From a virus, in IMG/VR virus record IMGVR_UViG_3300027754_000060, positions 33,086 to 97,085 of that record: 64,000 nucleotides of DNA, one strand, 5' to 3'. Position numbers and translations under genes: made by a program. The notes under the pieces are model-generated. The model saw nothing but the letters and a program-made list of their open reading frames with translations. It did no database searches and had not been told where the DNA came from. Of the stretch, positions 15,608 to 57,292 are shown piece after piece (position 1 is the stretch's first letter; every line of letters starts with the position of its first letter).

Positions 15608-15609
15608 GC

Positions 15610-38621: not shown

Positions 38622-41600
38622 TTATATATCAAAGTTCATTGTTTCCGATGAGGATGGGTTAAGAGCCTTAAAATCTTGGAAAGCCTTTTTAATAGAAGAG
38701 GCTACAATATTTGCTATGTCTGGTTTTAACTGATTTAACACTGTGTCTCCATTGATTATAACGTTTATGTCATGTTTTCCTGTTATTTTGATCTCTGGTG
38801 GGATATTTAAAGAGGCCAATGTTGTTGCTATTTTATCTAGTCTAGAGACGAAATTATCTATACTAGATACTGATCCTTGACTACTATCAGATACACCGGA
38901 CGACTTGGGAGATAAACTTTTTAATGTGTCCAGACCTGTTTTAAGCATATCTTTAAAAGTGTTCATAAATGACGTAAAATCAAAAGCTTGACTAGAACCT
39001 TGACTAGGACCTTGACCAGTAGCTGGGACACCGTTGTTAGTGCCATTAAGATAATATCTGGGTACTGATAATCCACCCCTACTTAGATTTCTTACTATGT
39101 CTCCATGACTATATGTTCCACTGTTGATAGCTTTTAATACTGGTAGGTTTTGTTGTGTTGATTGACGATTAACAACAAATTCACCCGGCGTTAGCATAGC
39201 TGGTACAGTGTCTGTGCCTCTTGGCTGAAAATTTATATGACTGCCCTTGCTAGCATAAACAGTTCCTCCTAACGATAGTTGCTGAGCTCCATGTCTACTA
39301 TTCCCTGTGTTAGTTGTCGCCAATAATGTTGACGAGTCGCTGCTAATGCCCTTGCTCTCATTAGCTGCAAATTGGTTGGCTCCTTCATCTCCTGGAAAGC
39401 TTCCTCCCATGCTCCTAATGTCGGTCATGGTGCTATATATCTGATCTTGCTTCGAGGTATACTCTTTTGATCCCATAGCAAGCTGGTCTCTTTGTTCTAT
39501 TTGCTGCTTCAGGACTACTCTGTATGCTTGTCTTTTGTGCAATCTCTCAAATTCAGCATCTAGCTTCTTTTGCCTAGCTGCGTTCTCACTCCGAAGACTC
39601 CATACCTGGGTCTGAACTTTGTAGGGCTCACTTGCTGCTCCAAGTATTGCTCCAGCTGCTAATCCAAGACCCCCAGGAACAATATCATTTCCAATCAGAG
39701 CTCCGCGAGCTGTTGCTTCTAAAGCAGCTACCATTTCATCTTCATTTTCTGATAATGGTCTTCCTATCGCATAGCTCACTGATCCATTCGTGTAAGCTCC
39801 TCCAGAGCTAGCACTACCACTTATAACTCCAAGAACAATCCTGGTGGCTGGGTCCATACCCTGTGCTATCGCTTTTTCATCCATATATCCATCATAAGCG
39901 CCCTGAAGCATCTCTAAATAAGCGGCTCCTTTCTCTGAAACTCCCCCTAAAAATTTCTTTCCTAGAGGACCGCCCCTTAATAACTTAATAGCATCAACAA
40001 AATTAGCTGTGTCAGCTGCCAACTTTACTGCGTCCAATGATTTTGCAGCCATATTTGTTGCCGCCGAGCTATCCTCTCCAGTTTGAGCAGATTCTCCTAG
40101 ATATAGGCCATATGCACCAGTAATCATATCTACCGCACTGGCTAGCGCGTCAAACCCAGGTACATATTTTTCTAGATAATCAAGCGTCATTGGTTTAAGT
40201 AGTCCGTCTTTCATTTTTAACAACAGGGGTTCAAGAGCTGTCTTTGCTAATCCAGAAGCTGTCTCCAAGGCTGCTACTATTCCTCCCCCGTTATAATATC
40301 CTACAGATCCGCCCTTTTGATATCTTCCAGCTCCACTATTAATGCTTTTTAACAAAGGTAAATTTTGCTGAGTAGATGCTCTGTTAACAACAAATTCGCC
40401 TGGTGTTAGCATAGCGGGCACAGTATCTGTTCCCTTTGGTTCAAAGTTTATATGTTGGCCCTTGCTAGCATAAACCATCCCTCCTCTATTAATTAGCTGA
40501 GGTAGTTCTTTTCCTTTCTCGACCTTTTGCTCTGTTCCGTAATCTTTCTGATTCTCGGGTAACAGACCAGTCATACCAGCTATTATTTTTTCCTTACCCC
40601 AAAGTAAACCATAATTATTCCCCGTCCAACGAGCACTCTGTTCTTGGGGCAAGAAATCCTTCAGATAATCTAACATGGTTTTTATGGCATCTTCATTTCC
40701 CACAGCCAGGCTGGGATCTTCCTCCTGTAAAGCTGCAATATTGTCTTTAAGACTCTTGACGGCATCGTCAGTTACTTTGCCATATACCCCAGAGGTATTT
40801 AATATCGTATCCCTAGCCTCATAATAATTTCTTAATGCTGACCCCTCCTTTAGTATCTCTTTAATCTCAAGAGTCCCAGGGTCCCTGTCATTAAAAACAC
40901 GCAGACCATTCTCATCTATACGATTATTATAGTCATTTTCAATAATCCTCATCAGGGCTATTCTATCGAATGGATTGTAAAATATACTTTCAGGACTATA
41001 CGCAAGACCAATCATATCATTTATTGACCTTGCTTTAGGATCTTCCACCCTGGTCTTCTTTACAATATTTCCATTCTCATCTTTATCTAATTTATAAAAA
41101 ATTCCCCTATCTAAGGCCATTTCTGAGGCAGCAGCATCCTCATCAGATAATTTATAATTAGTTTTATTTAATAACTTAGTTTCTACTTCCCTATTTATTA
41201 AATCTCCTAGATTGCCATCGCCGGTCCAATTATGCCAATACTTAGTAGTCATTTCACCTAATCGAATTTTAGAAGGTTCCTCTTCTTTAACGGAAAAAGC
41301 ATTATCATCTGTGCTAAGACCTAGACCATTATAGTATTGTAGCAATCTCTGTAATTGAGCTTCCCCCTTATATAAATCTGTAAAACCAGCTCTATAAGCA
41401 TCTTTTCTTAAGTAAGCAGCAGATTTTTTATCAGTAATGTTTGTCATGTCATCATTAAGAGGACTAAGCACTGACAAAATATCTTCTACGCTTTGAATAT
41501 TAGCTCCTCCGAGCAGCTGCTGATCTTGTACGCCTTGATTGTACAGAGCTCTTGCAATAGTTACTCGTTTAGCATCAGTAAATTTAAACTGCTGACTTTC

Positions 41601-44600
41601 CACCTCTTTTGGAGTGAGAGACTGATCGACTTGGTTATAATTAGTTATAGATGCCTGTTTCTTCGCTTTTTCTATCCGTGCTTTTCTAGAGTCTTCAAAT
41701 GCTTTAGCTTGGAAAGTAAACGGTACCGGCTTATAACTACCGTCCTCACTAGTGACTATAGAGTTCTTAGCTTGTGGAGTTTTTGAAAATAGATTTTTCG
41801 ATAAATCATTTGCCTTCAGATCATCCTCTGTGGCCATTTTGTGAGTTTGCAAGTTATACTGAAATGGAACGCCAAGAGCGGGATCTTCCATTCCAGTCTG
41901 AGCATTATAAACGGGAGTATGGATTTGTAATTCATCTAATAACTCCTTAATGCTTGGATAGACTATCGGATCTCCTGTTAATGGATATTCAATAAATGGA
42001 TTGGAACTATTTACATCTTTTGTTGCTGCCAATCCTTCTGCTACTATATACGACTTTTTATCTTTTCCCCAACTCCTATTGGTGTTATTCCATACTGGGC
42101 TTTCAACTTCTTTATAACCAAATTGAAATTGACCCTGATGATATTCTTTTTGTTGCACTTTAAATATATCAGCTACTTCTGCTCCTGGTTTAAATCCCTC
42201 AAGGGATTTGTCACCCTCCTCTGAGAGATACTGGTTAGCTCTGTCCGATAGCCACCGATAAGTTTGCTCTTTTCCCGTGATATTTGAGTCGGTATCATGC
42301 TCGAACAGAGAGATACCCCGTGGAGGTGGACCTGCTTCATGATAATAAGTACCTGGACCATCTGGCTCCTCGCCTTTATCAAGATATTTTTGTTTTAGTT
42401 TGGTCTCAATATCAGCCCATTTAACGGCCTTGTTAGAGGTTGGTCCCAGAAGAGTTATGGGAAAAGCTGAACCCTCAAACCCCAAGGTATCAAGATTAGC
42501 AAAATCTTTCTCTGAGATTTTTACTTCAGGTATTTTCTCATCATAGAACTCGTCTAGGGCAGTTAGATTTCTCTTGACCCGTATAGATTCGCCAGACTCT
42601 TTATAATTTGCAGATTTTAACTGCTTGACTTCCTCATACTGCTTACTAACGTTATTAAAATAGTCCTTTTGATTGGTTATGAAATCGTCTTTTACATTTG
42701 CAAGAACGATTTCATTCGTTTTTGCTTGATTATCTATATTCCATAAGATTTCTCCTCCTGTATTTACGATTCCGATATTATGAGGAGTTGCTGTATTGCT
42801 CAAGTTTTTTGGACTCAAGTTGTCTTCGTAGAATGTTGCGAATTTCATGCCTGGTGTTTTTGCAGCTAATCCCTTTGCTAAAACCATATTATTACCAAGT
42901 ACACTTAGCATTCCCAGCGGGTTGAAATTATCAGGAGACTGCTTGTAATACTTTAGAGTGGCATCCATAGTTTCATTCTGAGTTTTTAATATGTCTTCTA
43001 TTGTCGGCTCTTTTCTATGTGGATCATATGAATTTGCCCAACTAATTATCTTCTCCATATTTTTCATATATTCTGGCCGATTTTTTTCACTCAGAGGCAC
43101 TCTAGACTTCTCATCACTAATAGTAGCTAATTTCAAATCGCCCATCGATTTCGGACCAAGTATTTTTCCTACAGATTTCTGAGCTGATAGTTTAGTTCCA
43201 TCGCCAACATCTTGGTCTATTTTATTATTGAACTCCCTCACATTGTCATATCCATAACCAGCTGTTGCTTTTACGCCGTCTTGAGTCTTGAGTGCCAAAG
43301 GATTATTTGTCGTTTCCCTTATCAAAGGATTTACAGTAGAAGACGAGTCAATGCTTGTTCTTGCACTCGCTGTCGGGCCAGTAGCGACCCACTGAGCATC
43401 TCCTATTTGAAGAGTTTTTCCGCTGGTATCAGCAATAACACTAGCTGCCGCCTTTTGCACATCCTCATATTTAGGAAAGGGACTTGTAGTCTCTCTAATT
43501 CTTTTGTTCCTATCTAACACATCGGACTTCAAGGCGCTATAATTTTCTATTGCCCCCTCATCAGGAGGTTTACCTTCGAGAGCTGCTACTACTCCTCCCC
43601 TGTCATAATATCCTACAGATCCGCCCTTTTGATATCTTCCAGCTCCACTATTAATGCTTTTTAACAAAGGTAAATTTTGCTGAGTAGCTGATCTATTAAC
43701 AACAAATTCGCCCGGTGTTAGCATAGCAGGTACAGTATCTGTTCCTTTGGGCTGAAAATTAATATGCCTGCCCTCGCTAGCATAAACCATGCCCCCAGAA
43801 GACAAACCACCAGCTCCCTTGTTCTTTTTTACTTCTGCGATAAGATCCTGAATACCCTTATTAATATCATCCAGTTTTTTATCATTATAGCTAATTGCAA
43901 CATCTGTAGTAGCACTACTAAGTTTTATAGCAGCTGTTTCTGCTGTTTGCTCAGCCATAAGCTTGCTTATATTTCCTAATTCTTTATTAGCCTCCGATTG
44001 TAAAGTATTCCCGAGATTATAAGCATCTTGAGCAGCTGTCATTTGAGGATCGTCTTCTGGATTCCTTAAGCTATCCAAGACCTGTTGCATCATAGGATCA
44101 ACACCTATGCCAGCTTCTGATAACTGGCTCTCTAAAACATTCGCTTTTAGCTCCGATTGTTTTTTGCCATTTCCAAGCAAAGGAGCAATAGAATTAAAAT
44201 CTTGTAAACTTTGACTTCTTTGTTCAGATGTTGTTCCTACATTAGCTACGCCTTTCATATTATTATTTAATCTTAACATGCTAGAATTAAATTTTGCTAT
44301 ACCTTCTTGATCTGAAGTTACCAGTCTTTCTATTAAATTTTCTCCAGATTTGCGTTGTTCTTTGATCTCAGACATTCTTGCTAGAGCAGCACTAGCAATA
44401 TCTGTATTTTCAGCCATATCTTTTAGAGCATCATAATTTTCTTTAAGAGCAACATTTGTAGCATTTAGTCTAGTCCTCATCATCTTGTATTCTTCTATTC
44501 CTCCCTGTCCTTTTTCTCTAACCAATGAATCACTAGATTTTTGTTGCTGTTCTCTCGTATCATTTAATCTTCTTACTGATTCTCCAATAGCTGTTGGATC

Positions 44601-47600
44601 AGAGGTTGCTCCTGTTGTTCTAGCCTTAAAAGAATCTTGAGTAATTTTTATTTGGCTATTCATGCTTGGGGAATTTCCCAAAGTTTTATTCAATTCATTA
44701 TCAGCTCTTATTTTAATGTCTGATGCTTTCCTCATTCTGCTATTGCTCTCTACTTGATATCCAGCAGCCTGGTTCATGCTTTCTGAATATTCATTAAGAT
44801 TCTTCTGCCAAAATTCCAAGGCCCTATTAGCCATGTCTTGTGCTCTTTCAGCACTACTAATAGTTTTACTAAAAGCTCCAACATTTTCAGTTAGTTCATC
44901 ATAACTTATAGATGAGTCTTCTCCTCCTTTACCTTTAAAGTCTTTAAAAGCTACTCCTGTTTCTCTAGCTAACTTATCAGCTAATTCTGGTGGAAGGTTT
45001 AAATCTTTAAGAGCTTTGTCTAGATCCATAGTGATATTAGAAGATAGGGATTCGTTACTAGCTGATGGATTCTTTTTAAGGGTCTTATTAACACTGGATA
45101 AAACAGTATCTTGTAGTTTATCTGGAACTTTCAATAAACCCTTAATATTTTCTGAATCGGCTCCAAAAAAAGCTCCAGCTTGACCTCGAGCTCTTTCGTT
45201 ATCTTTCTCAGAATATGCTCCTTGATTTTTCAATATATTTATACTATCTAATGATGTTGCTCCTGATTTAGCATTTCCGCTCAGAGCGTCGTTTGATAAA
45301 CTTAAAGAGCTAGACAATGCATCTAATTCAAAAGATGTTTTATTTATAGCCCCATCCATGTTTTTCAACATTCTGTCTACATTTAGCCCAAAGGTTCTTG
45401 CTGCTTTGTCTAGATCCTCTATAGCCATTTGTCTTTTAACAGCATTAACACTTAGGACAGTTCTTTTTTCTGCTTCTCTGGCTATTATTCCTTCCCTTAT
45501 TTTATTTTTTTCTTCGTCCTTTAGACCCTTTTGCTGCTCCAACAATAATAACTCTTCCTCGATTGCTGGATTAGCTCGAGCTATACTCTCTGCAAAAGTA
45601 CTAACACCACCACTAGAATTTTTTAATTCTCCAAATACTTCGTCAACAGTTTTTTCTCCATTCCGTAGTTCTGCTTCAAAAACTTTGAATATGCCTTCTT
45701 TAACTGGACTAAATGTTGCAGCATTCTTTTTAGCTTGTTCAGGAGCATATTCCTTCATTTTCTTTTGCCTATAGTCGTCTGCGTATGGGTTTAACCCGTA
45801 ATAACTAGAAGATTTAAGATAACCCATAGTACCTTCTTTTTGCAATATTTGAGATCTTTCAGATGCTTGTTTTGTATTTCCTGAGCCGAGAGCATCAAAA
45901 AGATTAACCCACATAGCATCAGGAACTTGAACATCTAAATTTATTAGTCCCTTGGCAGCATCTCCTGCTGTACCTAGTTGAGACTTAGCTTTATTCAAAG
46001 CTCCAATATCTGTATTATCTTTGGCGAAATCATTAAGTGCTTCGCTAGCTTTTTCTAGAGAGGTCTCTAGATTTTTAGTCTGTAGTGCTTTATCAAAAGC
46101 TTTTGCTGCATTGTGAGCTGCCATAAAAGCAGCAGCTATACCAACAGCAGCAGCAACAGCAATAGCTCCAGCTGCTACGTATGGGTTTGCCAGCATAGGT
46201 AGCAGCTTCTGAGCTGCGGAACCCATTACTCCTGGCATCTTCGACATCTCCGTTAGGCCTTTCGCTGCAGTATCCATTCCTGTACGTATTGCAGTGAATG
46301 CACCAGTACCCGCAGATGCTCCTGCTGAAATAGCAGCTCCAGCCACTTTAGATCCTCTACCAGCTTCAGGACCACCAGAAATAAAAGATCCAAGGTTATC
46401 TCCTAAAACAGCAACCAAAGACGAATATTTTATCATCTTAGCAGATGTTGCCTGTACAGCATCACTCATTTGTTTCATAGATCTATCAATACGGATATCT
46501 CTTGCTGAAACCCCCAGTGTTTTTAAGCTGTCTGCAGATAGTCCTGTTTGAGTGGACATTTCTTGTATAGCTTTATCGTAAGCAGCCATGTCGCTAGTCA
46601 TGTACCCCACCATCTCTTTAAAGCCTGTGGTTTGAAATACATCTTCCATGCTCTTATTATTCTCAGCAGCACTCATCATTTCATTAACTTGATCAGCAAT
46701 CTTAGCTGCGTTTTTTGGGTCTTCCGCCTTAGAGCCAGCAGCTGTAGTAAGGGTATCTGTCAGTTTCTTTCTTGTGTCATCAACATCCTTTTGATATGCC
46801 TCTGCTGTATCGGCACCCCCTGCTATAGCAGCAGCTTTTTGCCCTGGTCCTAATCTAGTAGCTGCTAAAAGCGCCTCTCCTTTTACATTAGTGTTGATCG
46901 CAGTAGCACTATCTGCTTTTATCCTATGTGCTCTCTCCAAAATACTTTGTTGAATATTGAGCTTCATTTGGTCAGCAGTTAATCCAGCTTGTCTTCCTAA
47001 TTCAGCTACAGCCTTTAGAGTATCTGCATTTGCCGTTCCACCAGTAATAAATCTCTGAACATATCCTCCACTAGCAAATCCCTGAACATTCCCAACGCTT
47101 CCTCCTTTAGCAAATCCCTGAGCCTTGTCAGCATGATTCATTTTTTCTAGTTTGTTATAACCAATACTCTCAGCAGCTTTTTTATTAATAACAAATTCAC
47201 CCGGAGTTAATAGGGCGGGCACCGTATCTGATGTTGCTCCACCCATAGCAAATCTTTCAACCAAGTTTGGATTTTTAATATCTGATGGACTCTTGGTATA
47301 TCCAGTTTGCAATACCCATGCTTCATCACTATGAGGAGGCCATGTTTTAGGATCTTCAGAAGGAAACTTAGTTTGATCAAACCATTTTGACCCATGATAC
47401 CAATTTTCTGGAGCTAATGGGGTTTTATTAACATCTCCACGATTTTTAAAATAATATTTCCATACATTATATGCTGATGAACTAACACTATGTCTATCAG
47501 AGACTAATTGATTTCCACTTTCTGTTACCCCCTCCATAACGGCATCGTATAATTTAGGTCCGTATCCACTAGTAGCGCTAGAACTTTGAACAGAAAACAA

Positions 47601-50600
47601 AGGAGCTGATCCTAGTTCTTGCAGCCTGTCTGCTACAACCTCACCACTAGCATTAGCATTGTCCAAATACTTAGCGCTAACTCTTCCTGGTTTAACCGTT
47701 AATCCTATTTTTTCATCTTTTCTAATCTTTTTCGCTTCTGCTGCTTCTGCTACTCCGCCCACAGCAAATCTTCGAGCTTGTGCCATACCCCCTGCCATAA
47801 ATCCCGATGGTCCAACAGGGCCCATCATTCTGGTGGCCTTATCTGCATGGTCTAGTACAAACTCCCTTTTATGATTTGCAGAGTTTCGAGCAAATTGACT
47901 CATTCCTCCTTCTTTACCAACATTATATTTCTGTAATTCATTATTTAGAACATCCATATAGTATATTCTAAGATCTGACAAGATATCGCTATTATCTCGT
48001 ATATAAAAGTCTAACTCTTCAGGAGCATCAGTAAACCATTTTCCTCTAGCTGCTTTGGGACTAGAGCTTGTAGCACTCTCGCCCATCAGCCGTTCCTTTT
48101 TTTCAGGAGTCATTTCTGTTCCCATATACCTCACTGTTTTTGGAGTAATATGATCCCTTGGAACATCTCCAACTCGATAAAGTCTAGTCTGCCCCTCGTC
48201 TGCTGGTTTTAGTTTTGATTTTAAATCTAGGAATTGTTTAAAAAAAACATCGGATTCTGATGGAGGCTTGGGAATATTGCTAATAGAAGGTTTTGGAGGG
48301 GGAGGGGGAGGTGGAGGCATAATAGGAGACCCCGGCCTATTAACTGCTGCTACTACTGGTTTTCGTGGTGGAGGTGGGGGAGGAGGTGGAGGAGGTGGAG
48401 GAGGGGCATGGAGAACCATTGATCCTGCTGCATATCGCTGAACTTTTGCTGCTCCACCAATAGCGAACTTTTTGGATGGTGGTGGAGGTGGTGGAAGTGG
48501 AGGACCGAGTTTTTTAGGTGCGGGTGGTGGAAGCGACGGACCAAGTTTTTTAGGTGCGGGTGGTGGAAGTGGCGGACCGAGTTTTTTAGGCGGAGGTGGA
48601 GGCATAGTAGGAGAACCCGGTTTATTAACTGCTGCTACTTTATTATCATAATTTTGCGTTGGCAATGAAGAAGAATTTCTTTGATAAAAAGCTGCAAGAT
48701 CATGCAAATATTTTTGTCTTTGTGGTACACTAGCACTACTTAGAAAACCATTAGCAGCAAATGCAGCGCTTCGTAATTTAGATTCTTCTGCGTCAAGACT
48801 TGTGCCCTTAAATTTTCTTCCACTGTTAACCCAATTAGGGTCTGTTATTGGTATCCTGGCAGATGGAGGTACAGCTTCCCCTCCTGCTGCATATCCCCTT
48901 GTTGCTCTGTTAACTGATACCATATCTTCAGCTAGCGATGGTGTTGGAGTATAAGCAGCATCTGAAGGCCCCTTTAATTTTGCTGCTAAAGCTAATTGAG
49001 CAGGAGTAGATGTCTTCCCCGGTTCTTTCAAAGATCCTAATAGTGCCTTAGAATCAATTTTCATTCCAGCCTTAGATTTTTTTTGCTCAATTATTTTTGC
49101 AAGATATGTTTTAAATTCTGGGATAGTATATCCCATAGTATCTCCATACTTTTTAGCTTGGTCAAACTCAAAATCTTTTAGACCCGTACCCTTTTGGAGA
49201 TCATATACTTCTCCACCAAGAGCAAGATGTAGACCATATTTCTCAGGATCTTGTTCTGCTAATTTACGCATAAGAGTAAAAGGTTCAAAGCCAGCGTGAC
49301 TTTGTATTTTCTTTTTACGTTCTCTAAGAGCATCAACCTGGTCTCCCATCATTTTATATGCTGGATCTTTTTCCATCTGCTTTCTATCCAGTCTGGCTGG
49401 AAAATTAGCTAGTTCTGCATCAATATCTGCAAGAGATAAGTCCTTTCTCGACTTAACCCCCGCCATAATTTCAGGCAATACTTTTTCTCGATTTTGTAGT
49501 TGAGTTAGATTCTTTTGCACTATATCAAATACAGCAGGAGACAAGAATTTTCTCATAGCTGGAATATCACCACTCAATATAGCTGCTCTAGTTGCTGTTC
49601 CACTTATCTCGTCTTCTCCTCCCTCAGCAGTAGTTCTCTTGCCCATTGGGGCTATCCTATATCCTTTGTCCTTATATTTCTGAAGCTGTTGCTCACTTTT
49701 TTCCGGTCCGGCCATATATACACTACTAGAATAGTCAGGACGAACAAAATGCCTTCTACCATCCTCGCCAGGCTTTCCCTCAAAAATATCAGGCATCCCA
49801 AAATCCTGATTTGCTTTATTAACTATAGATTTACTAAAAGCTGCCTTAGCTAATATCGTTCTAAAATCTTGATCAAAATTAACAGTTCTAAAATCATGAG
49901 CATCAGGATCTTTTGCTGTTATTGCTTCATTACTGCCCACCAAAACTGCAAAGTCTTCTTCGCTGAATCCAAGAGCTTTTGCCGCATCCAAGATAGACTC
50001 ATGACCCAGTGTGGTTGGAGCAAAACCCCCTTTTATTACTGCTAATGATTTTGTTTCTGCTGTTGGTCCTTGTAGTCTTTCTCCTTTTTCGTTCTTTAGC
50101 TTAAAACCCCCAACATCAACACCCATAGTCCTTAACTTTTTCGGATCTATCTCAGAAGCTAGCATCCCTTGCATTGATCCACTATCAGTAGGGGCTCCAG
50201 CAGTAGTTCCTGGACTTCTACCAAAAAGAGTATCCTTAAGAGGATCTTTGTTAGCATCTCTTGAACCCCTTCTTCTTTTGATCTCATCCCTTTGTTCTTT
50301 TGTTGAAGATTCTAAACTATATACTTTGTCTGCTGATGTTAAATATCCACTCAGTTTTTCTGGTGTTACAGTAGCAGAAACATCTACAATTTGTGAAACT
50401 GAAGCTATGTCTTCTGGAGTTAAAATAGCACTTCTTGTTGTTTTTCTTAAACTAGCATTATCTGCCTCCGATGATTTAGAACCCCCCAACATAAGAGAAC
50501 TTTTACCCGATCCTGCTACTCCCACTATAGCACTGAGACGATCTAATGATCCCTCTCCTCTAGCAGTAGCAGCTAATTTAGACAGATGCATTTTGTAATC

Positions 50601-53600
50601 AGACACTTTCTTCATGCCCAACTTACTCATCTCTGCACCAACGACAGCTGAATTTTCTGGATTTGCTAAAACATCACTATCTATATATCCAATATTTCTT
50701 TGAGCAGTAGCCTCAGATTTTTGAGTATTATTTTTAGCACCCACAGATGCGCCCACAGATGCGGCCACAGCCTTTTTTACAGAAACCTTAGTTGCTGCTC
50801 CTCCTCCAGGAACCTTAGTTGCTGCTCCTCCTCCAGAACCTTTTGTTCCAAAGACCCCGTCTCTATTTTCTAGAAAACTTAAAACCTCTGCCCTATACTT
50901 ACTTATTGAGGCACTATCTATTGTTCTTTTAACATCTGTGGGAATATTATCTTCCATTCCAAAGAATTGAGCAGCAGGCCCCAACCCGGATGGAAAGTCT
51001 ATAGACATCGCTCCCTTTGTAGCAGCTTTAGCTCCTAGTTGTGTTAAAATCTGTTGTATAGTATATCCTTCCATTTCTGCTTTGCCTGTTATCGCAAGAT
51101 CTTCTTGAGACATAGGAGTAACAGGAGTCAGATAATGAGCAGTTTTATTAGCTTTCCTAGCTGCTAAAATATTCTGTAAATTATCATCTATTAAATCTTC
51201 ATCATATCCTAAGTTTTTTGCTTTAGCTTGTGCTACGTCATCTCCTGTCATTCCAGGAGTTGATACTCCAGTTACTCTATCAGCACCGATTGGAATACCT
51301 AATCTAGTAAGCGTAGAAGCAATTAAATCAGCTGATGCTTGAGGTCTTGCTGATAATACTCTTATCTTTTTTATAAAGTTTGGATCCTTGTCTAATATTT
51401 CTTTTAGATGAGTTCCTATGGGGGATTTTAATTTAGCGTTTTGTAATGCTTTAGAAACTGCTACCAGATCAGAATATGCTGCAATGTCTGGTTGCCCCTT
51501 ATCATTAAATATGTCTGCTCCACTAACTAGTGTCTCATCAAAATCAATAGCTAAATTTTTTCCAGATCCTAAGAATTCTTCAGCTTGTATAGATTCGGCC
51601 ATATTTTTTGTTGAAGAAGCATTTACTCCCTCCATCTGTTTTTGCAAACTAGCACTCGTCTTTTCAGAAAGTATTCCTATTTTAGTATAAATAGATTTTC
51701 CATTAATCATCTCTGGACCAATAGACATATGTTTGGTTTTTCCTATTAATCCGACTAATCCAAAAATCTCAGATCCAGCGATTGCTTTTTGAGCTATAGC
51801 CTCTTCATCTGCAAAACTTTCAATCACAAGACGGTTCATAAGATCATCGTGCTTATTGGGCACTCTTGATACAAAATCTTTGTCTCTTATGCCTGTACCA
51901 TCTAATCTGCCTTCGTTAACTAATCTTCTATACATATCTCTAAGTGGAATCTTAGCTTCTCCCATTTTTGCCTTAGCTACTCCACCAATACCAAGTTGTT
52001 GAATATCCATTGAATAGAATGGATCATGATCAACGTCATATGATGGATCAGTCCAAGGAACAGCCATAGACATATTTGCAGAATTATAATTAGCAGAAGC
52101 TTTTAAGATTTTTAATGATGATGATCTAGGAAGAATAACTTCTTGTTCTGCTCTTTGCGTTTCTTGAATTCTTTGCTTATGAGGTTCAGCAAGCATCTTT
52201 TCTGGAAGAGCAGCATTAACATCAATACCAGTAGCATCCTTTTTAGTTTTGATATCTAAAAATCCTCGTTGACTAAAATTCATGCCAATTGTTTTTGCTT
52301 TTGAAGTTGATAAAAACCCAGGAAGAGCAAAAGTACTACCAGCGGCACTATCAACATCTTTCTGTGATCTTAATTGATTTCCAATTTGTTTTTTAATAAT
52401 ATCTAATCTAGTTTCTCCAATACCAGTATAAACATTGTCTGGAACTTTAGTTTTTGGTGAAGAATCTAGCTTTTTAATAGTTTCTTTAATGCTCTCCATA
52501 TAAGCTTTATCAGACTCAGAAACTTGCCCCGGTGGACCATAACCCAGATTTCCATCATCTGGATAGGCTAAATGAGTATTAATATCACGAGACCTATTTT
52601 GATAGGTTGCTATAGCATCAACAGGATAAACCGCACCTGCGTCTTTGAATTTTTGAATCCTTCCACCCGCTTTTAATCCCAAAGAATTTTTATAGGCTTC
52701 GTCTATTTCTATGAGAATAGCGTCCCCAGCGTTAACACTAGGATCAAGATCAATCTTATTGGTAAAACCGACCTCCGCAGGCGATTGCTGCTGTGTTTCC
52801 ATCAAATATCTTAATTTTTTAGCATACATAGTCTCATCAGAAGTTCTCTCGTCTCTAAATCTAGTTTCTATCGGAGTTGCAGCAACTGCTGTAAAATCCA
52901 TTGGATCATATTGACCCCCTGTTTTTGAATATCCTGGATATCCCATAATTGGCAGGTATTCGCCCATGAAATCTTCAAATGCAAAACCTTTGCTGAGTTG
53001 ATACTTCTTCTCGTGTCTCTTATCTGTAAAGTTTGTCGCTTGCGCCGCTTGTCTGATATCTGTTGCAAAATCTTGGTTTATAGTCTCTTTGTTTGCATAA
53101 AACTTGTCTATGTCTGTTTTGTCTATCGTGATACGCTGAATATTTCCCTTTACGATATCTTCATTTTGTATATTTGGATCTTCTGAATAATTCTTGTCTG
53201 TAAGGTAACTGCCACTTTTTGCCTGCTTAATCTCTTCTATTTTTTTGCCCTGATTAGCATAGACAGGTGCCACTCCTCCTCTAGCAAATTTTCTAACAAA
53301 ACCCCCACCAGCTAATTGAACGGTTCCTTTATCCCACGTTCTACCAGTTGTATAGTCCTTATCCATAGTAAATCCCTTTGCGAGATATCTACCAAATCCT
53401 CCGCTTTGTGTCTTTACTACATTATCAACTGTAAAGTCCTTTAATTGACCCTCTAGCTCGTTCTTACCCAGTTCAGCTATTTGGCCCGCTGTTGCTCCTT
53501 CAAAAACTTTCTCGTTTCTTGGAATTTTATATCCCGATGCTGTCTCTGGATATTTTTCTGGTCTATTATTTAGCTTCTGTATATTTTGGGCTTTAGATTG

Positions 53601-55928
53601 TGATACAAAACTATCTTTCTTGATCTCATATGTATCAAAATCATTAACTCTAAAGTTTGCTTTAAATTCTTTTCCATCTGGGATAACAGTAGCTGAAAAT
53701 GTATCTCCGTCTGATGCTACTGCTGTATCTTTTACAACTTTGCTAATTCCTACTGTATTTGCTAGACCTCCACCAGCAAACTTTTGAATCCTGCCTCCAC
53801 CAGCATATCCTTGAATACTTCCACCCCTATTCTTATTCATCTTATGCAAGTTACTAGCACCCAGAGTTTCCACAGCTTTTTTACGAATAACAAATTCCCC
53901 CGGTTCTAACATTGCTGGCACAGTATCTCCATTACCTTGACCAGGTACTACTCCTCCTCTGGCAAATTTTCTAACAAAACCCCCACTATTTAATCCAGTA
54001 CCAGGTGGAAATTGAAGATTGTCTATAATACTAGATAATCTATCTATGCTTGCTGTATTTGTAGACAAAGAAACAGTATTACTCTCAAGAGCAATAATAT
54101 AACTATTTATAGCAGTCATACCATATGTTAAAGAAACAATATTATTTGATAAAGTATCTATAGCAGAAGTTAAAGTTCCCATAGCTGCTGAAGAAGCGAT
54201 TATATTAGATGACAGAGAACTAACATTATTTGATAAAGCATCTATAGCAGCAGTTAAGGCGCTATTATCTACTGAAGAACCACTGCCACCAGTAACTAAT
54301 CCACTCAGCCTATTTCCCATATTTCTAACTGCTGATGATCTACCACTAGAATCATCTTCACCCGATCCTTTGTCTGATTTTTTTCCTAATCCTCCAACAA
54401 ATCCACTACCAAACTCAACCATCGCAGACATTCCCTTACTAACTGCTAGAATAGCTAAGATAGGAAGAAGACCCTTGAGACTACCTGCTACAGTTATTAA
54501 AGCACTAGCAAATCCTAAAGCTGTTTTAGCAAGAGTTTGAAATGTGTTACTGGATCCTACAGTTCTCACCAAGGATAAAAATTCTTCTCTAACTTTCATC
54601 ATTTGATTAGCTAATGATAACTGTGCAATACCAGCATCTTTAGCTAATGATCCCTGACCCTGTTGAGCTATTTTTAAAGCATCTTGAGCTGTTGCAAATT
54701 CATGAATCAAAGGAATAACTTTACCAATTTGACGAAATCCACCAAGCTGTTCCACAATCTCACTAAATTTTAAATCTCTAGGATCAATGCTACCTAGTCC
54801 TTCGCTTAAAAGTTGTATAGCTTTGTATGCTCCAACAAACTTACCTTCATTATCTGTTAATACAACTCCAAATTCCTTTAGAGCATCTATAGTATCTCTT
54901 CTTTGTATTCTTGTAAAAATAGTTCTTAAACCCGTAGCAATAGTTTCAGCGCTTTCTCTAGTTGTTGCTCTAACACTAGTAAATACTGCGATAAATTCAT
55001 TTAAAGCGTCCGACCCCTCACTAACTCCTTTGCTAGCTGAAGCAAATACTCCTCCAGTCCTTTGAATAGCTGTAATAATATCACTTGCTTCAACAGCAAA
55101 AGCAGCAGACACAGCATTAATAGATCCTAGAGCACTTTCCAGATCTCCCGCACCAATTTGAAACTGTTTCATTAAAGCAATAGATCCCTCTACAGTTTCA
55201 TTCATACTATCAAAACTTGGAGCAAGATCAGTAAGGGCCAAAGCTCGTAATGCTCTTTCAGTATCCTTGGCGCTTAAACCAGCTTGAGCAAGAGTTCCAG
55301 CCACGCCAATTAATTCAGTAGAAGCTACTCCTAATGTTGTGGACAATGTTGTAATTTCTGACGACAAAGATCCTAACTCTTGTCCATTTTTTCCAGTAAC
55401 TTGTTGAAGCTTAACTAGTTCTTTGTCAAACTGAACAAATGTTGCTAGGCCACTTTTAAGAGCATTAGTAACGCTAAAGATAATAGTAGTAACAGCTGAA
55501 AAAGCAGCAAATCTTTTAACAGCTAGAGCGGATTGTCTACCAAACTCTTCGATCTGAGTACTAGATGCCGAGATTTTTTGAGCAGTATTAGTTTGAGCTT
55601 TTGCTAAATTATTCGACGCTGTTGCTGCAGAATTTAAAGCACTAGAGGTAGAAGCCGATGCTTTATTTGCAGCTCCCATAGCTCCAATAAATGACTTAAT
55701 AGCTCTTTCAGCATCAGTAGCATTGGTTTTTGTTATAGCTAGAGTATTGTTGAGGGTTTGTAGAGCAGAAGTTAACTGGGTCGCATTTCTTATTGACGAT
55801 GCATCGACCTGTATTTTAATATCGCCAGTAATAGTACCAAGTTGTCTTTTTATATCAGATACTATATTTCCAATATTAGAGGGGCCCCTAAGATTTAACT
55901 GTGCAGTTAGATTAAATGCTTGTGCCAT
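38622..55928 (-). CDS. Giant tail tape measure protein (TP901/PhageMin_Tail-type N-terminus) with multiple inserted enzymatic domains
   Basis: 'FDKELVKLQQVTG...LAQAGLS...AVEASDIITAIQRTG...RESAETIATGLRTIFTRI' TMP core; position after tube and chaperone genes; 5768 aa. Confidence 0.9.
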   Translation of the reverse strand: MAQAFNLTAQLNLRGPSNIGNIVSDIKRQLGTITGDIKIQVDASSIRNATQLTSALQTLNNTLAITKTNATDAERAIKSFIGAMGAANKASASTSSALNSAATASNNLAKAQTNTAQKISASSTQIEEFGRQSALAVKRFAAFSAVTTIIFSVTNALKSGLATFVQFDKELVKLQQVTGKNGQELGSLSSEITTLSTTLGVASTELIGVAGTLAQAGLSAKDTERALRALALTDLAPSFDSMNETVEGSIALMKQFQIGAGDLESALGSINAVSAAFAVEASDIITAIQRTGGVFASASKGVSEGSDALNEFIAVFTSVRATTRESAETIATGLRTIFTRIQRRDTIDALKEFGVVLTDNEGKFVGAYKAIQLLSEGLGSIDPRDLKFSEIVEQLGGFRQIGKVIPLIHEFATAQDALKIAQQGQGSLAKDAGIAQLSLANQMMKVREEFLSLVRTVGSSNTFQTLAKTALGFASALITVAGSLKGLLPILAILAVSKGMSAMVEFGSGFVGGLGKKSDKGSGEDDSSGRSSAVRNMGNRLSGLVTGGSGSSVDNSALTAAIDALSNNVSSLSSNIIASSAAMGTLTSAIDTLSNNIVSLTYGMTAINSYIIALESNTVSLSTNTASIDRLSSIIDNLQFPPGTGLNSGGFVRKFARGGVVPGQGNGDTVPAMLEPGEFVIRKKAVETLGASNLHKMNKNRGGSIQGYAGGGRIQKFAGGGLANTVGISKVVKDTAVASDGDTFSATVIPDGKEFKANFRVNDFDTYEIKKDSFVSQSKAQNIQKLNNRPEKYPETASGYKIPRNEKVFEGATAGQIAELGKNELEGQLKDFTVDNVVKTQSGGFGRYLAKGFTMDKDYTTGRTWDKGTVQLAGGGFVRKFARGGVAPVYANQGKKIEEIKQAKSGSYLTDKNYSEDPNIQNEDIVKGNIQRITIDKTDIDKFYANKETINQDFATDIRQAAQATNFTDKRHEKKYQLSKGFAFEDFMGEYLPIMGYPGYSKTGGQYDPMDFTAVAATPIETRFRDERTSDETMYAKKLRYLMETQQQSPAEVGFTNKIDLDPSVNAGDAILIEIDEAYKNSLGLKAGGRIQKFKDAGAVYPVDAIATYQNRSRDINTHLAYPDDGNLGYGPPGQVSESDKAYMESIKETIKKLDSSPKTKVPDNVYTGIGETRLDIIKKQIGNQLRSQKDVDSAAGSTFALPGFLSTSKAKTIGMNFSQRGFLDIKTKKDATGIDVNAALPEKMLAEPHKQRIQETQRAEQEVILPRSSSLKILKASANYNSANMSMAVPWTDPSYDVDHDPFYSMDIQQLGIGGVAKAKMGEAKIPLRDMYRRLVNEGRLDGTGIRDKDFVSRVPNKHDDLMNRLVIESFADEEAIAQKAIAGSEIFGLVGLIGKTKHMSIGPEMINGKSIYTKIGILSEKTSASLQKQMEGVNASSTKNMAESIQAEEFLGSGKNLAIDFDETLVSGADIFNDKGQPDIAAYSDLVAVSKALQNAKLKSPIGTHLKEILDKDPNFIKKIRVLSARPQASADLIASTLTRLGIPIGADRVTGVSTPGMTGDDVAQAKAKNLGYDEDLIDDNLQNILAARKANKTAHYLTPVTPMSQEDLAITGKAEMEGYTIQQILTQLGAKAATKGAMSIDFPSGLGPAAQFFGMEDNIPTDVKRTIDSASISKYRAEVLSFLENRDGVFGTKGSGGGAATKVPGGGAATKVSVKKAVAASVGASVGAKNNTQKSEATAQRNIGYIDSDVLANPENSAVVGAEMSKLGMKKVSDYKMHLSKLAATARGEGSLDRLSAIVGVAGSGKSSLMLGGSKSSEADNASLRKTTRSAILTPEDIASVSQIVDVSATVTPEKLSGYLTSADKVYSLESSTKEQRDEIKRRRGSRDANKDPLKDTLFGRSPGTTAGAPTDSGSMQGMLASEIDPKKLRTMGVDVGGFKLKNEKGERLQGPTAETKSLAVIKGGFAPTTLGHESILDAAKALGFSEEDFAVLVGSNEAITAKDPDAHDFRTVNFDQDFRTILAKAAFSKSIVNKANQDFGMPDIFEGKPGEDGRRHFVRPDYSSSVYMAGPEKSEQQLQKYKDKGYRIAPMGKRTTAEGGEDEISGTATRAAILSGDIPAMRKFLSPAVFDIVQKNLTQLQNREKVLPEIMAGVKSRKDLSLADIDAELANFPARLDRKQMEKDPAYKMMGDQVDALRERKKKIQSHAGFEPFTLMRKLAEQDPEKYGLHLALGGEVYDLQKGTGLKDFEFDQAKKYGDTMGYTIPEFKTYLAKIIEQKKSKAGMKIDSKALLGSLKEPGKTSTPAQLALAAKLKGPSDAAYTPTPSLAEDMVSVNRATRGYAAGGEAVPPSARIPITDPNWVNSGRKFKGTSLDAEESKLRSAAFAANGFLSSASVPQRQKYLHDLAAFYQRNSSSLPTQNYDNKVAAVNKPGSPTMPPPPPKKLGPPLPPPAPKKLGPSLPPPAPKKLGPPLPPPPPPSKKFAIGGAAKVQRYAAGSMVLHAPPPPPPPPPPPPPRKPVVAAVNRPGSPIMPPPPPPPPKPSISNIPKPPSESDVFFKQFLDLKSKLKPADEGQTRLYRVGDVPRDHITPKTVRYMGTEMTPEKKERLMGESATSSSPKAARGKWFTDAPEELDFYIRDNSDILSDLRIYYMDVLNNELQKYNVGKEGGMSQFARNSANHKREFVLDHADKATRMMGPVGPSGFMAGGMAQARRFAVGGVAEAAEAKKIRKDEKIGLTVKPGRVSAKYLDNANASGEVVADRLQELGSAPLFSVQSSSATSGYGPKLYDAVMEGVTESGNQLVSDRHSVSSSAYNVWKYYFKNRGDVNKTPLAPENWYHGSKWFDQTKFPSEDPKTWPPHSDEAWVLQTGYTKSPSDIKNPNLVERFAMGGATSDTVPALLTPGEFVINKKAAESIGYNKLEKMNHADKAQGFAKGGSVGNVQGFASGGYVQRFITGGTANADTLKAVAELGRQAGLTADQMKLNIQQSILERAHRIKADSATAINTNVKGEALLAATRLGPGQKAAAIAGGADTAEAYQKDVDDTRKKLTDTLTTAAGSKAEDPKNAAKIADQVNEMMSAAENNKSMEDVFQTTGFKEMVGYMTSDMAAYDKAIQEMSTQTGLSADSLKTLGVSARDIRIDRSMKQMSDAVQATSAKMIKYSSLVAVLGDNLGSFISGGPEAGRGSKVAGAAISAGASAGTGAFTAIRTGMDTAAKGLTEMSKMPGVMGSAAQKLLPMLANPYVAAGAIAVAAAVGIAAAFMAAHNAAKAFDKALQTKNLETSLEKASEALNDFAKDNTDIGALNKAKSQLGTAGDAAKGLINLDVQVPDAMWVNLFDALGSGNTKQASERSQILQKEGTMGYLKSSSYYGLNPYADDYRQKKMKEYAPEQAKKNAATFSPVKEGIFKVFEAELRNGEKTVDEVFGELKNSSGGVSTFAESIARANPAIEEELLLLEQQKGLKDEEKNKIREGIIAREAEKRTVLSVNAVKRQMAIEDLDKAARTFGLNVDRMLKNMDGAINKTSFELDALSSSLSLSNDALSGNAKSGATSLDSINILKNQGAYSEKDNERARGQAGAFFGADSENIKGLLKVPDKLQDTVLSSVNKTLKKNPSASNESLSSNITMDLDKALKDLNLPPELADKLARETGVAFKDFKGKGGEDSSISYDELTENVGAFSKTISSAERAQDMANRALEFWQKNLNEYSESMNQAAGYQVESNSRMRKASDIKIRADNELNKTLGNSPSMNSQIKITQDSFKARTTGATSDPTAIGESVRRLNDTREQQQKSSDSLVREKGQGGIEEYKMMRTRLNATNVALKENYDALKDMAENTDIASAALARMSEIKEQRKSGENLIERLVTSDQEGIAKFNSSMLRLNNNMKGVANVGTTSEQRSQSLQDFNSIAPLLGNGKKQSELKANVLESQLSEAGIGVDPMMQQVLDSLRNPEDDPQMTAAQDAYNLGNTLQSEANKELGNISKLMAEQTAETAAIKLSSATTDVAISYNDKKLDDINKGIQDLIAEVKKNKGAGGLSSGGMVYASEGRHINFQPKGTDTVPAMLTPGEFVVNRSATQQNLPLLKSINSGAGRYQKGGSVGYYDRGGVVAALEGKPPDEGAIENYSALKSDVLDRNKRIRETTSPFPKYEDVQKAAASVIADTSGKTLQIGDAQWVATGPTASARTSIDSSSTVNPLIRETTNNPLALKTQDGVKATAGYGYDNVREFNNKIDQDVGDGTKLSAQKSVGKILGPKSMGDLKLATISDEKSRVPLSEKNRPEYMKNMEKIISWANSYDPHRKEPTIEDILKTQNETMDATLKYYKQSPDNFNPLGMLSVLGNNMVLAKGLAAKTPGMKFATFYEDNLSPKNLSNTATPHNIGIVNTGGEILWNIDNQAKTNEIVLANVKDDFITNQKDYFNNVSKQYEEVKQLKSANYKESGESIRVKRNLTALDEFYDEKIPEVKISEKDFANLDTLGFEGSAFPITLLGPTSNKAVKWADIETKLKQKYLDKGEEPDGPGTYYHEAGPPPRGISLFEHDTDSNITGKEQTYRWLSDRANQYLSEEGDKSLEGFKPGAEVADIFKVQQKEYHQGQFQFGYKEVESPVWNNTNRSWGKDKKSYIVAEGLAATKDVNSSNPFIEYPLTGDPIVYPSIKELLDELQIHTPVYNAQTGMEDPALGVPFQYNLQTHKMATEDDLKANDLSKNLFSKTPQAKNSIVTSEDGSYKPVPFTFQAKAFEDSRKARIEKAKKQASITNYNQVDQSLTPKEVESQQFKFTDAKRVTIARALYNQGVQDQQLLGGANIQSVEDILSVLSPLNDDMTNITDKKSAAYLRKDAYRAGFTDLYKGEAQLQRLLQYYNGLGLSTDDNAFSVKEEEPSKIRLGEMTTKYWHNWTGDGNLGDLINREVETKLLNKTNYKLSDEDAAASEMALDRGIFYKLDKDENGNIVKKTRVEDPKARSINDMIGLAYSPESIFYNPFDRIALMRIIENDYNNRIDENGLRVFNDRDPGTLEIKEILKEGSALRNYYEARDTILNTSGVYGKVTDDAVKSLKDNIAALQEEDPSLAVGNEDAIKTMLDYLKDFLPQEQSARWTGNNYGLLWGKEKIIAGMTGLLPENQKDYGTEQKVEKGKELPQLINRGGMVYASKGQHINFEPKGTDTVPAMLTPGEFVVNRASTQQNLPLLKSINSGAGRYQKGGSVGYYNGGGIVAALETASGLAKTALEPLLLKMKDGLLKPMTLDYLEKYVPGFDALASAVDMITGAYGLYLGESAQTGEDSSAATNMAAKSLDAVKLAADTANFVDAIKLLRGGPLGKKFLGGVSEKGAAYLEMLQGAYDGYMDEKAIAQGMDPATRIVLGVISGSASSGGAYTNGSVSYAIGRPLSENEDEMVAALEATARGALIGNDIVPGGLGLAAGAILGAASEPYKVQTQVWSLRSENAARQKKLDAEFERLHKRQAYRVVLKQQIEQRDQLAMGSKEYTSKQDQIYSTMTDIRSMGGSFPGDEGANQFAANESKGISSDSSTLLATTNTGNSRHGAQQLSLGGTVYASKGSHINFQPRGTDTVPAMLTPGEFVVNRQSTQQNLPVLKAINSGTYSHGDIVRNLSRGGLSVPRYYLNGTNNGVPATGQGPSQGSSQAFDFTSFMNTFKDMLKTGLDTLKSLSPKSSGVSDSSQGSVSSIDNFVSRLDKIATTLASLNIPPEIKITGKHDINVIINGDTVLNQLKPDIANIVASSIKKAFQDFKALNPSSSETMNFDI
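40293..40375. repeat. 83-bp perfect direct repeat, copy B
   Basis: Identical to 43605-43687; a third, diverged copy of the block lies at about 39120-39260. Confidence 0.95.
43605..43687. repeat. 83-bp perfect direct repeat, copy A (within a ~190-bp similar block)
   Basis: ataatatcctacagatccgcc...aaattttgctgagtag is identical to 40293-40375. Confidence 0.95.
47410..47710 (-). other. TMP cassette: GNAT acetyltransferase-like domain
   Basis: ATSGYGPKLYD...LVSD..SVSSSAYNVW. Confidence 0.6.
47845..48200 (-). other. TMP cassette: second, ART-PolyVal-like ADP-ribosyltransferase domain
   Basis: RLYR...GKWFTD...FY...IYYMDV...REFVL. Confidence 0.6.
48295..48640 (-). repeat. Pro-rich repeats in TMP: 3 x 36-nt KKLGP(P/S)LPPP(A/P)P units, poly-Pro, and duplicated VAAVN(K/R)PGSPxMPPPPP
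   Basis: Visible in both DNA and translation. Confidence 0.85.
49530..50050 (-). other. TMP cassette: HIGH-class nucleotidyltransferase (NMNAT/PPAT/cytidylyltransferase-like)
   Basis: GGFAPTTLGH and ISGTATR motifs. Confidence 0.8.
50250..50545 (-). other. TMP cassette: P-loop kinase domain
   Basis: AIVGVAGSGKSS Walker A; IVD strand; RRRGSR lid-like motif. Confidence 0.7.
51150..51560 (-). other. TMP cassette: HAD-superfamily phosphatase domain
   Basis: DFDET (motif I), LSAR (II), K (III), IDDN..N (IV). Confidence 0.8.
52095..52630 (-). other. TMP cassette: VIP2/C3/Alt-like ADP-ribosyltransferase domain
   Basis: Y....INxxL, VYTG (canonical VYRG), GFLSTS, EQEVILPR. Confidence 0.8.
52700..53010 (-). 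other. TMP cassette: PD-(D/E)xK-like nuclease domain
   Basis: KGFAFE...DPMDF...IETR (K replaced by R). Confidence 0.5.
53370..53745 (-). other. TMP cassette: thermonuclease (SNase)-like domain
   Basis: SDGDTF...FRVNDFDTYE...GGFGRYLA corresponds to DGDT / R..gid.pE / yGR.La. Confidence 0.65.
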
Positions 55929-56982: not shown

Positions 56983-57292
56983 TTTCTCCGTGTTGTTGGT
57001 CATTATTGAATTTAAAATCATAATGATATTTTTGTTTCACATTTATCCCAGATCTAGATCTATTAACAAGAAAATCCCCAATATCATCCATTGCTGCCCT
57101 AGCCTGTTTATTACCATTGTTCAGAATACTATTTCTAGTATCTTCCCATAGATTTTCCATAGCTAAAGATTGCTTAGACTCATTGTCCCACAAGTACCCA
57201 AAATTATTTTCAAATCTAGCAATAGCTCCTATCATAGTAGTTTGAAATTTCTTATAAACATTATCCAGTAGTCTTTGTTCATTTTGTTCCAT
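56969..57292 (-). CDS. Hypothetical protein in the tail chaperone region
   Basis: AAGGA Shine-Dalgarno; overlaps the next gene. Confidence 0.65.
   Translation of the reverse strand: MEQNEQRLLDNVYKKFQTTMIGAIARFENNFGYLWDNESKQSLAMENLWEDTRNSILNNGNKQARAAMDDIGDFLVNRSRSGINVKQKYHYDFKFNNDQQHGENDEN

Follow-up and report, generated by a model that had tools for sequence, protein, structure and literature searches.

A giant phage tape measure protein with enzyme cassettes set between copies of a repeated glycine-bracketed joint

Introduction

Tape measure proteins (TMPs) set the length of phage tails, form the DNA conduit, and sometimes bear a cell-wall hydrolase. The gene described here encodes a giant TMP and lies in a stretch of viral DNA of 64,000 nucleotides (nt), referred to as the window, which covers positions 33,086 to 97,085 of the IMG/VR record IMGVR_UViG_3300027754_000060. 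The record is 97,085 bp long, its completeness was estimated by CheckV at 67%, and 17.8% of it is taken up by the TMP open reading frame (ORF), the longest ORF of the window:

38622..55928, minus strand: TMP ORF, 5,768 amino acids (aa), with no internal stop

The Pfam family PhageMin_Tail matches the TMP at aa 191-384 (E 6e-21, 75.6 bits against a cut-off of 33.2), and the PHROG TMP families 4211, 28, 14917, and 167 also match the ORF. Two hydrophobic segments are located at aa 470-506 and aa 3242-3275. A first-pass annotation of the DNA proposed that this protein is punctuated by ~25 short [FYL]xxGG linkers and by five longer DTVPA[ML]LxPGEFV motifs, which might serve as a di-glycine processing signal that releases each enzyme separately, or as an unfolding or threading signal. 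The follow-up analysis indicates that both kinds of motif belong to one repeat family whose copies stand at the boundaries of interchangeable cargo blocks.

The full modules and the joint unit

A regular expression finds 29 [FYL]xxGG motifs in the TMP, compared with 5.9 ± 2.3 (maximum 17) in 1,000 shuffles, and exactly five of the longer motifs, all within a few bases of where they had first been placed. The example peptides that had been given for the short motif are all present in the protein. Self-comparison and alignment revealed that the five long motifs are the cores of five homologous modules of ~85 aa:

53763..54023, minus strand: module M1 (aa 636-722), with GG units, a DTVPAMLEPGEFV core, then YAGGG and FAGGG units; core at 53889-53927, from aa 668
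47034..47309, minus strand: module M2 (aa 2874-2965), with FAMGG, a DTVPALLTPGEFV core, then FAKGG, FASGG, and FITGG; core at 47190-47228, from aa 2901
43563..43838, minus strand: module M3 (aa 4031-4122), from self-comparison and alignment; core at 43701-43739, from aa 4064
40251..40529, minus strand: module M4 (aa 5134-5226), from self-comparison and alignment; core at 40389-40427, from aa 5168
39039..39311, minus strand: module M5 (aa 5540-5630); core at 39174-39212, from aa 5573, which is 196 aa before the C-terminus

The statement that a single such motif is common near TMP C-termini agrees with what was found, as the module is widespread in TMPs and normally occurs once near the C-terminus. 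A tblastn search found it in 148 of 50,697 cultured-phage records, and all of the listed annotated matches fall under TMP genes, mostly with one per genome. M5 occupies the usual place of the lone module in ordinary TMPs, and for most of the relatives listed the distance from the last core to the end of the protein is 143-310 aa. Having four copies in addition to M5 departs from the family norm.

The short motifs had been described as separate linkers. This description fails for 17 of the 29, which lie inside the five modules as parts of one larger repeat. The short motif is the module's own 9-residue sub-unit, GG-x-[VI]-Q-[KR]-[FY]-A-x-GG, and the joints form one repeat family in two sizes.

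The module profile was searched against 1.84 billion cluster representatives, which gave 16,774 matches at E ≤ 1e-3, of which 910 reach E ≤ 1e-30. The 150 best-scoring matches are 889-7,872 aa long and contain 2-12 matched stretches each; those that were looked up are metagenomic proteins, and at least 113 IMG/VR contigs carry relatives. Together with the TMP described here they form a set of 151 giant TMPs, which was clustered at 50% identity. A separate pass with a hidden Markov model (HMM) over this set counted 757 modules, with 2-10 per protein and five as the commonest number. The position logo of the set repeats every 9 residues, each repeat bracketed by glycine pairs, and the unit GG-x-[VI]-Q-[KR]-[FY]-A-x-GG is followed by x-V.

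The sub-unit is also enriched in the 151 proteins outside the modules, where [FY]xxGG occurs 532 times compared with 213 in shuffled sequence, [KR][FY]xxGG 185 times compared with 26, and [FY]AxGG 163 times compared with 26. In the present TMP there are six [FY]xxGG motifs outside the modules compared with ~2.4 expected (p ~0.04 by a Poisson estimate). LxxGG shows no enrichment outside the modules of the 151 proteins (374 compared with 323 shuffled), and some of the L-type examples in the TMP may therefore be chance matches and are individually uncertain. In this genome the joint motif is confined to the TMP. The protein contains 18 [FY]xxGG motifs compared with 2.6 expected, all other ORFs together contain 6 compared with 8.2, and the [KR][FY]xxGG form is found nine times in the TMP and in no other ORF.

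At the DNA level, M3 and M4 are 90% identical over 215 nt (repeat family D1, window 43582-43796 and 40270-40484), which points to a recent duplication or gene conversion within the gene; M5 and M4 are 63% identical. The DNA of the isolated joint at 53262..53315 is 83% identical to 53931-53994 over 64 nt (family D3), and the gene also contains 27-nt tandem units (families D4, D14, and D15). These repeats raise the possibility that the units are recombination scars or neutral glycine linkers, left when cassettes were inserted into a 27-nt repeat array and carried the flanking repeats along. The tandem units and the duplicated joints at 83-90% nucleotide identity (families D1, D3, and D4) are what such an origin predicts, and at one junction a GGGAATKV repeat replaces the canonical unit, so the exact sequence is dispensable there. 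However, V/I, Q, K/R, F/Y, and A are kept across the 151 proteins with a 6-7-fold enrichment, and third codon positions within the motif are only 59% identical (22 strict instances), whereas neutral linkers would drift. This origin is therefore regarded as highly improbable. Codon use within the motif is close to that of the whole gene, and conservation of the joint looks to be at the level of the protein and not of the DNA, although 22 instances make this a weak test.

An 84-nt tandem duplication with 74% identity is located just upstream of M1 (window 54111-54278, minus strand) and encodes a 28-aa repeat rich in Ser, Ala, and Leu.

Cargo blocks and isolated joints

The isolated joints and the cargo that was recognized between M1 and M2 are as follows:

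53262..53315, minus strand: joint LAGGG-FVRKFARGG (aa 872-889), which separates two cargo blocks; a duplicate of the units that open M1
52632..52682, minus strand: joint LKAGG-RIQKFKDAG (aa 1083-1099), upstream of the ADP-ribosyltransferase block; repeat family D12
52080..52505, minus strand: ADP-ribosyltransferase (ART) cargo domain (aa 1142-1283); Pfam ADPrib_exo_Tox, E 2.7e-11, above the curated cut-off
51975..52001, minus strand: joint LGIGG (aa 1310-1318), downstream of the ART block; L-type and individually weak
50781..50840, minus strand: Gly-rich linker of two 27-nt units, GGGAATKV twice (aa 1697-1716); family D14, in a stretch of low model confidence (below 50)
49218..50708, minus strand: P-loop kinase-like and NMN-adenylyltransferase-like (NMNAT-like) cassette (aa 1741-2237), from structure prediction and Foldseek
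50481..50495, minus strand: LMLGG (aa 1812-1816), inside the P-loop domain, after the Walker A motif
49212..49226, minus strand: LALGG (aa 2235-2239), exactly where the folded kinase-NMNAT cassette ends at its C-terminus
48879..48893, minus strand: joint YAAGG (aa 2346-2350), in a region of low model confidence
48420..48467, minus strand: joint FAIGG...VQRYAAGS (aa 2488-2503), between proline-rich tracts
47754..47801, minus strand: double joint FMAGG / RRFAVGG (aa 2710-2725), model confidence below 50; alignments of homologues start at 2720-2721
47259..47720, minus strand: folded cargo domain (aa 2737-2890), flanked by the FAVGG and FAMGG joints, model confidence 60-80

Among ten cargo blocks searched separately against Pfam, the ART domain is the only one above the cut-off. 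The remaining assignments come from AlphaFold2 models of aa 1700-2360 (661 residues, 19-row alignment) and aa 2700-3010 (311 residues, 78-row alignment), which together cover 972 of the 5,768 residues and 9 of the 29 motifs. The first model features a confident two-domain fold at aa 1741-2237, with a predicted local distance difference test (pLDDT) score mostly of 80-95, and the score is below 50 at aa 1700-1740 and from aa 2238 onwards. The second of these two domains matches NadM/NMNAT structures in Foldseek (E 8e-7), and the modelled cassette resembles a NadR-type pair of kinase-like and NMNAT-like domains. It could be an injected NAD+ salvage module that acts against NAD-depleting defences. 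LALGG is placed at the exact domain end because the model confidence falls below 50 from aa 2238, and the alignments of homologues of the cassette end at aa 2233-2237. In an alignment of 18 homologues, the GGGAATKV repeat takes the place of a GG-x-IQKFA-x-GG unit that the homologues have directly before the kinase cassette. LMLGG was rejected as a joint; it lies in a predicted helix, is not conserved in the 18 homologues, and is regarded as a chance match.

In the second model, the pLDDT is below 50 at aa 2700-2736 (FMAGG and FAVGG), 2891-2904 (FAMGG), and 2938-2964 (FAKGG, FASGG, and FITGG), and the M2 core at aa 2905-2937 has scores of 53-85 with short helices. Foldseek comparison of this model returned weak matches, nearly all of them to GNAT acetyltransferases (best E 0.06), and the domain at aa 2737-2890 may be an acetyltransferase-like cargo domain. 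Motif position relative to domain boundaries had been suggested as a check on the punctuation idea. Eight of the nine motifs covered lie in linkers with pLDDT below 50 or at a domain end, and the remaining one, LMLGG, lies inside the P-loop domain. The joint units are thus predicted to be disordered and to lie between independently folding domains. A prediction of a three-copy module complex gave a score of 0.00 and a module fold with pLDDT below 50, and it speaks neither for nor against any of the readings considered here.

The proline-rich tracts that flank the FAIGG joint (window 48300-48640, minus strand, aa ~2430-2545) consist of PPPPKKLGP-type units in 36-nt tandem repeats, with Pro runs of up to 13 residues. 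They have no homologue among the 150 relatives.

The TMP contains no Cys in its 5,768 aa. The 151 giant TMPs contain 35 Cys in 627,085 residues, and 131 of the 151 are Cys-free, while other large ORFs of the same genome have 24-48 Cys each. This near-absence of Cys supports a chain that travels unfolded, and the pattern looks like the avoidance of Cys by proteins that are exported unfolded.

Cassette exchange among relatives

The 150 relatives match the TMP in blocks. Its N-terminal 510 aa are shared with ~120 of them and the cargo blocks with 0-55, and no cargo domain is universal in the class. The view that the motifs mark cassette boundaries is borne out by the alignments of at least 100 aa, of which 33% start and 42% end within 15 aa of a motif compared with 13.5% expected, an excess that is in part inflated, as discussed below.

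Individual cassettes recur in different contexts. The kinase-NMNAT cassette (aa ~1741-2237) is found with unchanged ends in at least 24 other TMPs, at positions 782, 1206, 1602, and others, and the domain at aa 2737-2890 recurs in 19-23 other TMPs. A HAD-like block precedes the kinase-NMNAT block in the present protein and comes after it in three relatives (L054, L015, and L035). An [FY]xxGG unit is located within 40 aa downstream of the HAD-like block in 13 of 13 instances and upstream of the kinase block in 18 of 24; the block at aa 2726-2890 has one on either side, in 15 of 19 and 12 of 19 instances. In 80 loci there was no case of modules split between two ORFs. Comparison of the relatives shows the joints to be the sites at which related phages gain, lose, and re-order cassettes.

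Comparison with known tape measure proteins

A profile built from 106 module sequences was compared with 177,635 PDB sequences. It matched the TMP of phage Douge twice (E 1e-11) and lambda gpH at residues 732-793 (8iyk_H, E 8.7e-5), with no other significant match; a profile built from 5 sequences had no match in PDB. The segment of lambda gpH at ~727-793 has the same layout as the modules described here, with KFHFATGG, a PAGIVHRGEFV core (P-A-x-x-x-x-G-E-F-V), a short helix, and YATGG. No Pfam family lies on this segment, and Tape_meas_lam_C covers gpH 627-701. In gpH the module comes after the last hydrophobic segment and ahead of the tip-binding C-terminus. It is present once and no cargo accompanies it, whereas the TMP described here has five copies and ~10 sub-units that separate enzymes.

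Lambda gpH is cleaved to gpH* and gpHC, and a C-terminal piece of ~14 kDa is lost "from the glycine-rich region" (PMC12617516). This agrees with the first-pass statement that gpH is processed, and the module copy of gpH lies in the region that is cut and within the cleaved fragment gpHC. A mass of 14 kDa implies that gpHC starts near aa 710-722, a run with several GG pairs just before KFHFATGG. The cut has been placed only within the glycine-rich region and the enzyme was not named (PMC12617516), and for this reason homology of the module does not prove cutting. The Douge protein gp16 (PDB 8ZDO), from a mycobacteriophage, has two modules at aa 963-1038 and 1412-1460, which shows that module duplication inside a TMP exists in a cultured phage. 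It differs from the TMP described here in that its 1,699 aa contain only two copies, with no multi-enzyme cargo described.

In phage T5, the TMP pb2 is processed to pb2* and pb2C, and the cut after Arg1127 is the only TMP cut that has been mapped to a residue (PMC10038345). The cut between a hydrophobic stretch and a C-terminal enzymatic domain frees the cargo, which follows the same logic of cargo placed after a joint (PMC10038345). T5 differs in that the cut follows Arg and not GG, three residues before a GG, and the single cargo is a cell-wall hydrolase. The new N-terminus of pb2C, AEGGMMYPG...GEHGTEVV, resembles the module start GGMVYA...GEFVV by eye, and it was tried as a module. The resemblance is not significant and was not used as evidence because the module HMM fails to match pb2, even with filters off.

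Lambda and T5 suggest an arrangement in which some or all of the five full modules carry a cut, placed at the module or just ahead of it, and the giant TMP ends up as approximately six fragments, while the isolated units stay uncut as spacers. The full module alone is homologous to the lambda segment that heads gpHC (PMC12617516), Douge has two modules, and the module cores are far better conserved than the short units; to these may be added the T5 likeness, with the reservation already given. On the other side, the lambda cut lacks an assigned residue and protease (PMC12617516), pb2 has no module match, and no protease candidate was found in the record or its relatives, as described in the next section. 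Such module-only cutting is judged unlikely.

A different precedent is gp96 of the Thermus phage P23-45, a 5,002-aa TMP fused to a virion RNA polymerase that was proposed to be active while fused (PMC10770324). It is like the protein described here in being a giant TMP that delivers a cytoplasm-acting enzyme via the tail, and it has no Cys in 5,002 aa. It differs in having no module, no enrichment of the motif (two [FY]xxGG compared with 1.7 expected), and a single enzyme, which is N-terminal.

Additionally, the TMP resembles the polyvalent proteins surveyed by Iyer et al. in 2017 (PMC5512222), in which many unrelated effector domains, including ART, are combined in one injected polypeptide with extensive domain shuffling. 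The present TMP contains an ART domain identified by Pfam, an NMNAT-like fold with a P-loop domain, and a further folded domain in one chain. The polyvalent proteins of the survey are packaged in the head or transferred by conjugation, and often carry a zincin-like peptidase for self-processing, whereas here there is a repeated joint instead. The survey contains no mention of tape measure proteins (PMC5512222).

Evidence on cleavage

The proposal of a C39 or CE-clan protease found no support. Neither PF03412 (C39) nor Peptidase_C48 was found in the record or in four relatives, with the CE families C5, C55, C57, and C63 not searched. Two of the four relatives are complete, the present record is rated 67% complete, and the C39 positive controls matched. 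Peptidases of the S78, Prok-JAB, NlpC/P60, and M23 families were likewise not found in these five genomes, and the search for S77 was uninformative as its control matched in no genome. A ClpP-like gene is present only in the two complete relatives, L083 (G004:C1:14923-15402) and L084 (G003:C1:8934-9440), where 75-105 kb separate it from the TMP gene. A likely identity is the prohead protease, and the present contig probably stops short of it. The TMP itself has no Cys, HExxH, or HxxEH, and no peptidase family was found in it by Pfam.

The register of the joint also differs from that of known double-glycine sites. The leaders cut by C39 peptidases are N-terminal and have hydrophobic residues at -4, -7, and -12 before GG. 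In the joint logo there is A at -4, F/Y at -5, Q at -7, and V/I at -8, and the sites are internal and in tandem.

These results bear on the most literal form of the processing idea, in which a phage, host, or intrinsic activity cuts behind Gly-Gly at each [FY]xxGG joint and the TMP is a polyprotein that frees each enzyme in the host. Its attraction is that the joints lie exactly between folded domains in disordered sequence and are conserved and confined to the TMP. The parent module is found in the region of the lambda gpH cut, with the implied start of gpHC at aa 710-722 (PMC12617516), and polyprotein release has been proposed for other polyvalent proteins (PMC5512222). Several observations argue against it. 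Apart from the distant ClpP-like gene in two of them, the five genomes yielded no peptidase of the families searched, the TMP lacks Cys and HExxH, no cargo domain is universal, and in the 80 loci the modules were never divided between ORFs. The hydrophobic register of the joint (-5, -8) differs from that of C39 leaders (-4, -7) or adenain (-4), and the mapped T5 cut follows Arg, three residues before a GG. The residues that follow GG are often K, F, L, or R, which are destabilizing at the N-terminus under the bacterial N-end rule, and tandem units spaced 9 aa apart would free nonapeptides. Internal sites in a filled tail lumen of ~4 nm would be hard for a protease to reach, and the P23-45 gp96 enzyme, proposed to act while still fused, provides a precedent for an uncut fusion (PMC10770324). 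Cleavage at every joint is considered unlikely. Cutting in this protein, or cutting after Gly-Gly, is not supported, and an unfolding or threading signal, the other reading offered by the first-pass annotation, accounts for the disordered joints and the near-absence of Cys no less well than cleavage.

Neighbouring genes

Two minus-strand ORFs are located directly upstream of the TMP gene, at 56969-57292 (107 aa) and 56032-57021 (329 aa), and overlap at 56969-57021. They are arranged like the G/GT frameshift pair of tail assembly chaperones, without a family match, and no slippery site was identified. FN3 and FGE-sulfatase-like domains are encoded downstream of the TMP gene, and Pfam and PHROGs gave almost no matches for the genes that neighbour it. 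The tail region downstream of the TMP also contains giant ORFs of 2,718 and 2,127 aa (window 7451-21993, minus strand), which have no Pfam match and are rich in Cys, with 33 and 24 residues.

A proposed hinge model for the joints

The explanation preferred here, which is given about an even chance of being correct, is that the repeat units are conserved disordered joints for packing and swapping cargo, and not necessarily cut sites. The protein is a polyvalent TMP in which putative enzyme cassettes interrupt three TMP parts, namely the core at the N-terminus, a second TMP-like unit that is helical and transmembrane, and the tip-docking C-terminal end. The cassettes include the ADP-ribosyltransferase, the kinase and NMNAT-like pair, and others. 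The glycine pairs would act as hinges, and the basic-aromatic strand between them may act as a short recognition element. During assembly the Cys-free cargo chain would be held extended in the tail lumen, probably by a tail assembly chaperone or the tube wall, and on injection it would leave through the tip and refold domain by domain. As every cassette has the same joint at both ends, recombination between joints would swap cargo and leave the ruler undisturbed. Should there be a maturation cut, the lambda homology makes the glycine-rich stretch on the N-terminal side of each of the five full modules its likeliest site, although the model does not require cutting.

Several points weigh against the hinge model. 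Part of the excess of alignment ends at the motifs is due to the modules, which are themselves the most strongly conserved segments. Low pLDDT is weak evidence of disorder, and the models cover 661 and 311 residues with shallow alignments of the cargo. The module is not visible in cryo-electron microscopy structures, in which only residues 818-849 of lambda gpH (PMC12617516) and 1658-1699 of the Douge protein (PMC13033339) are seen. Lambda and T5 cut their TMPs in this general region, and for the full modules a model without cutting may be mistaken. Finally, the strict conservation of V-Q-K-F-A exceeds what a passive hinge needs, and the partner that would read it is only postulated.

A further, bolder suggestion is that the 9-residue GG-bracketed unit is a dedicated portable signal that is read by some partner, which might be a protease, a tail assembly chaperone, or the tube lumen. 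This is possible, if on the doubtful side. If it is true, any enzyme could be plugged into the tape measure for delivery through the tail. With a protease as the partner, these TMPs would be polyproteins in the strict sense, and what determines the cut from gpH to gpH* would be marked by the one copy in lambda.

Implications for phage tails and injected effectors

TMPs with one embedded hydrolase, the P23-45 RNA-polymerase fusion, and polyvalent proteins are already known, and literature searches found no account of multi-cassette TMPs with a repeated joint. The results described above point to a large uncultured clade, with at least 113 IMG/VR contigs and 910 protein clusters that have strong multi-copy matches, in which the ruler would also be a cartridge of interchangeable cytoplasmic enzymes linked by a common joint. 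The predicted cargo of the clade includes ART, NMNAT-like and kinase, and phosphatase-like domains. The joint gives a simple sequence rule for locating cargo boundaries and new injected effectors in metagenomes, and the analysis ties a widespread TMP module to the maturation step of lambda gpH. For the loading of proteins into phage tails, the joint architecture offers a possible natural blueprint.

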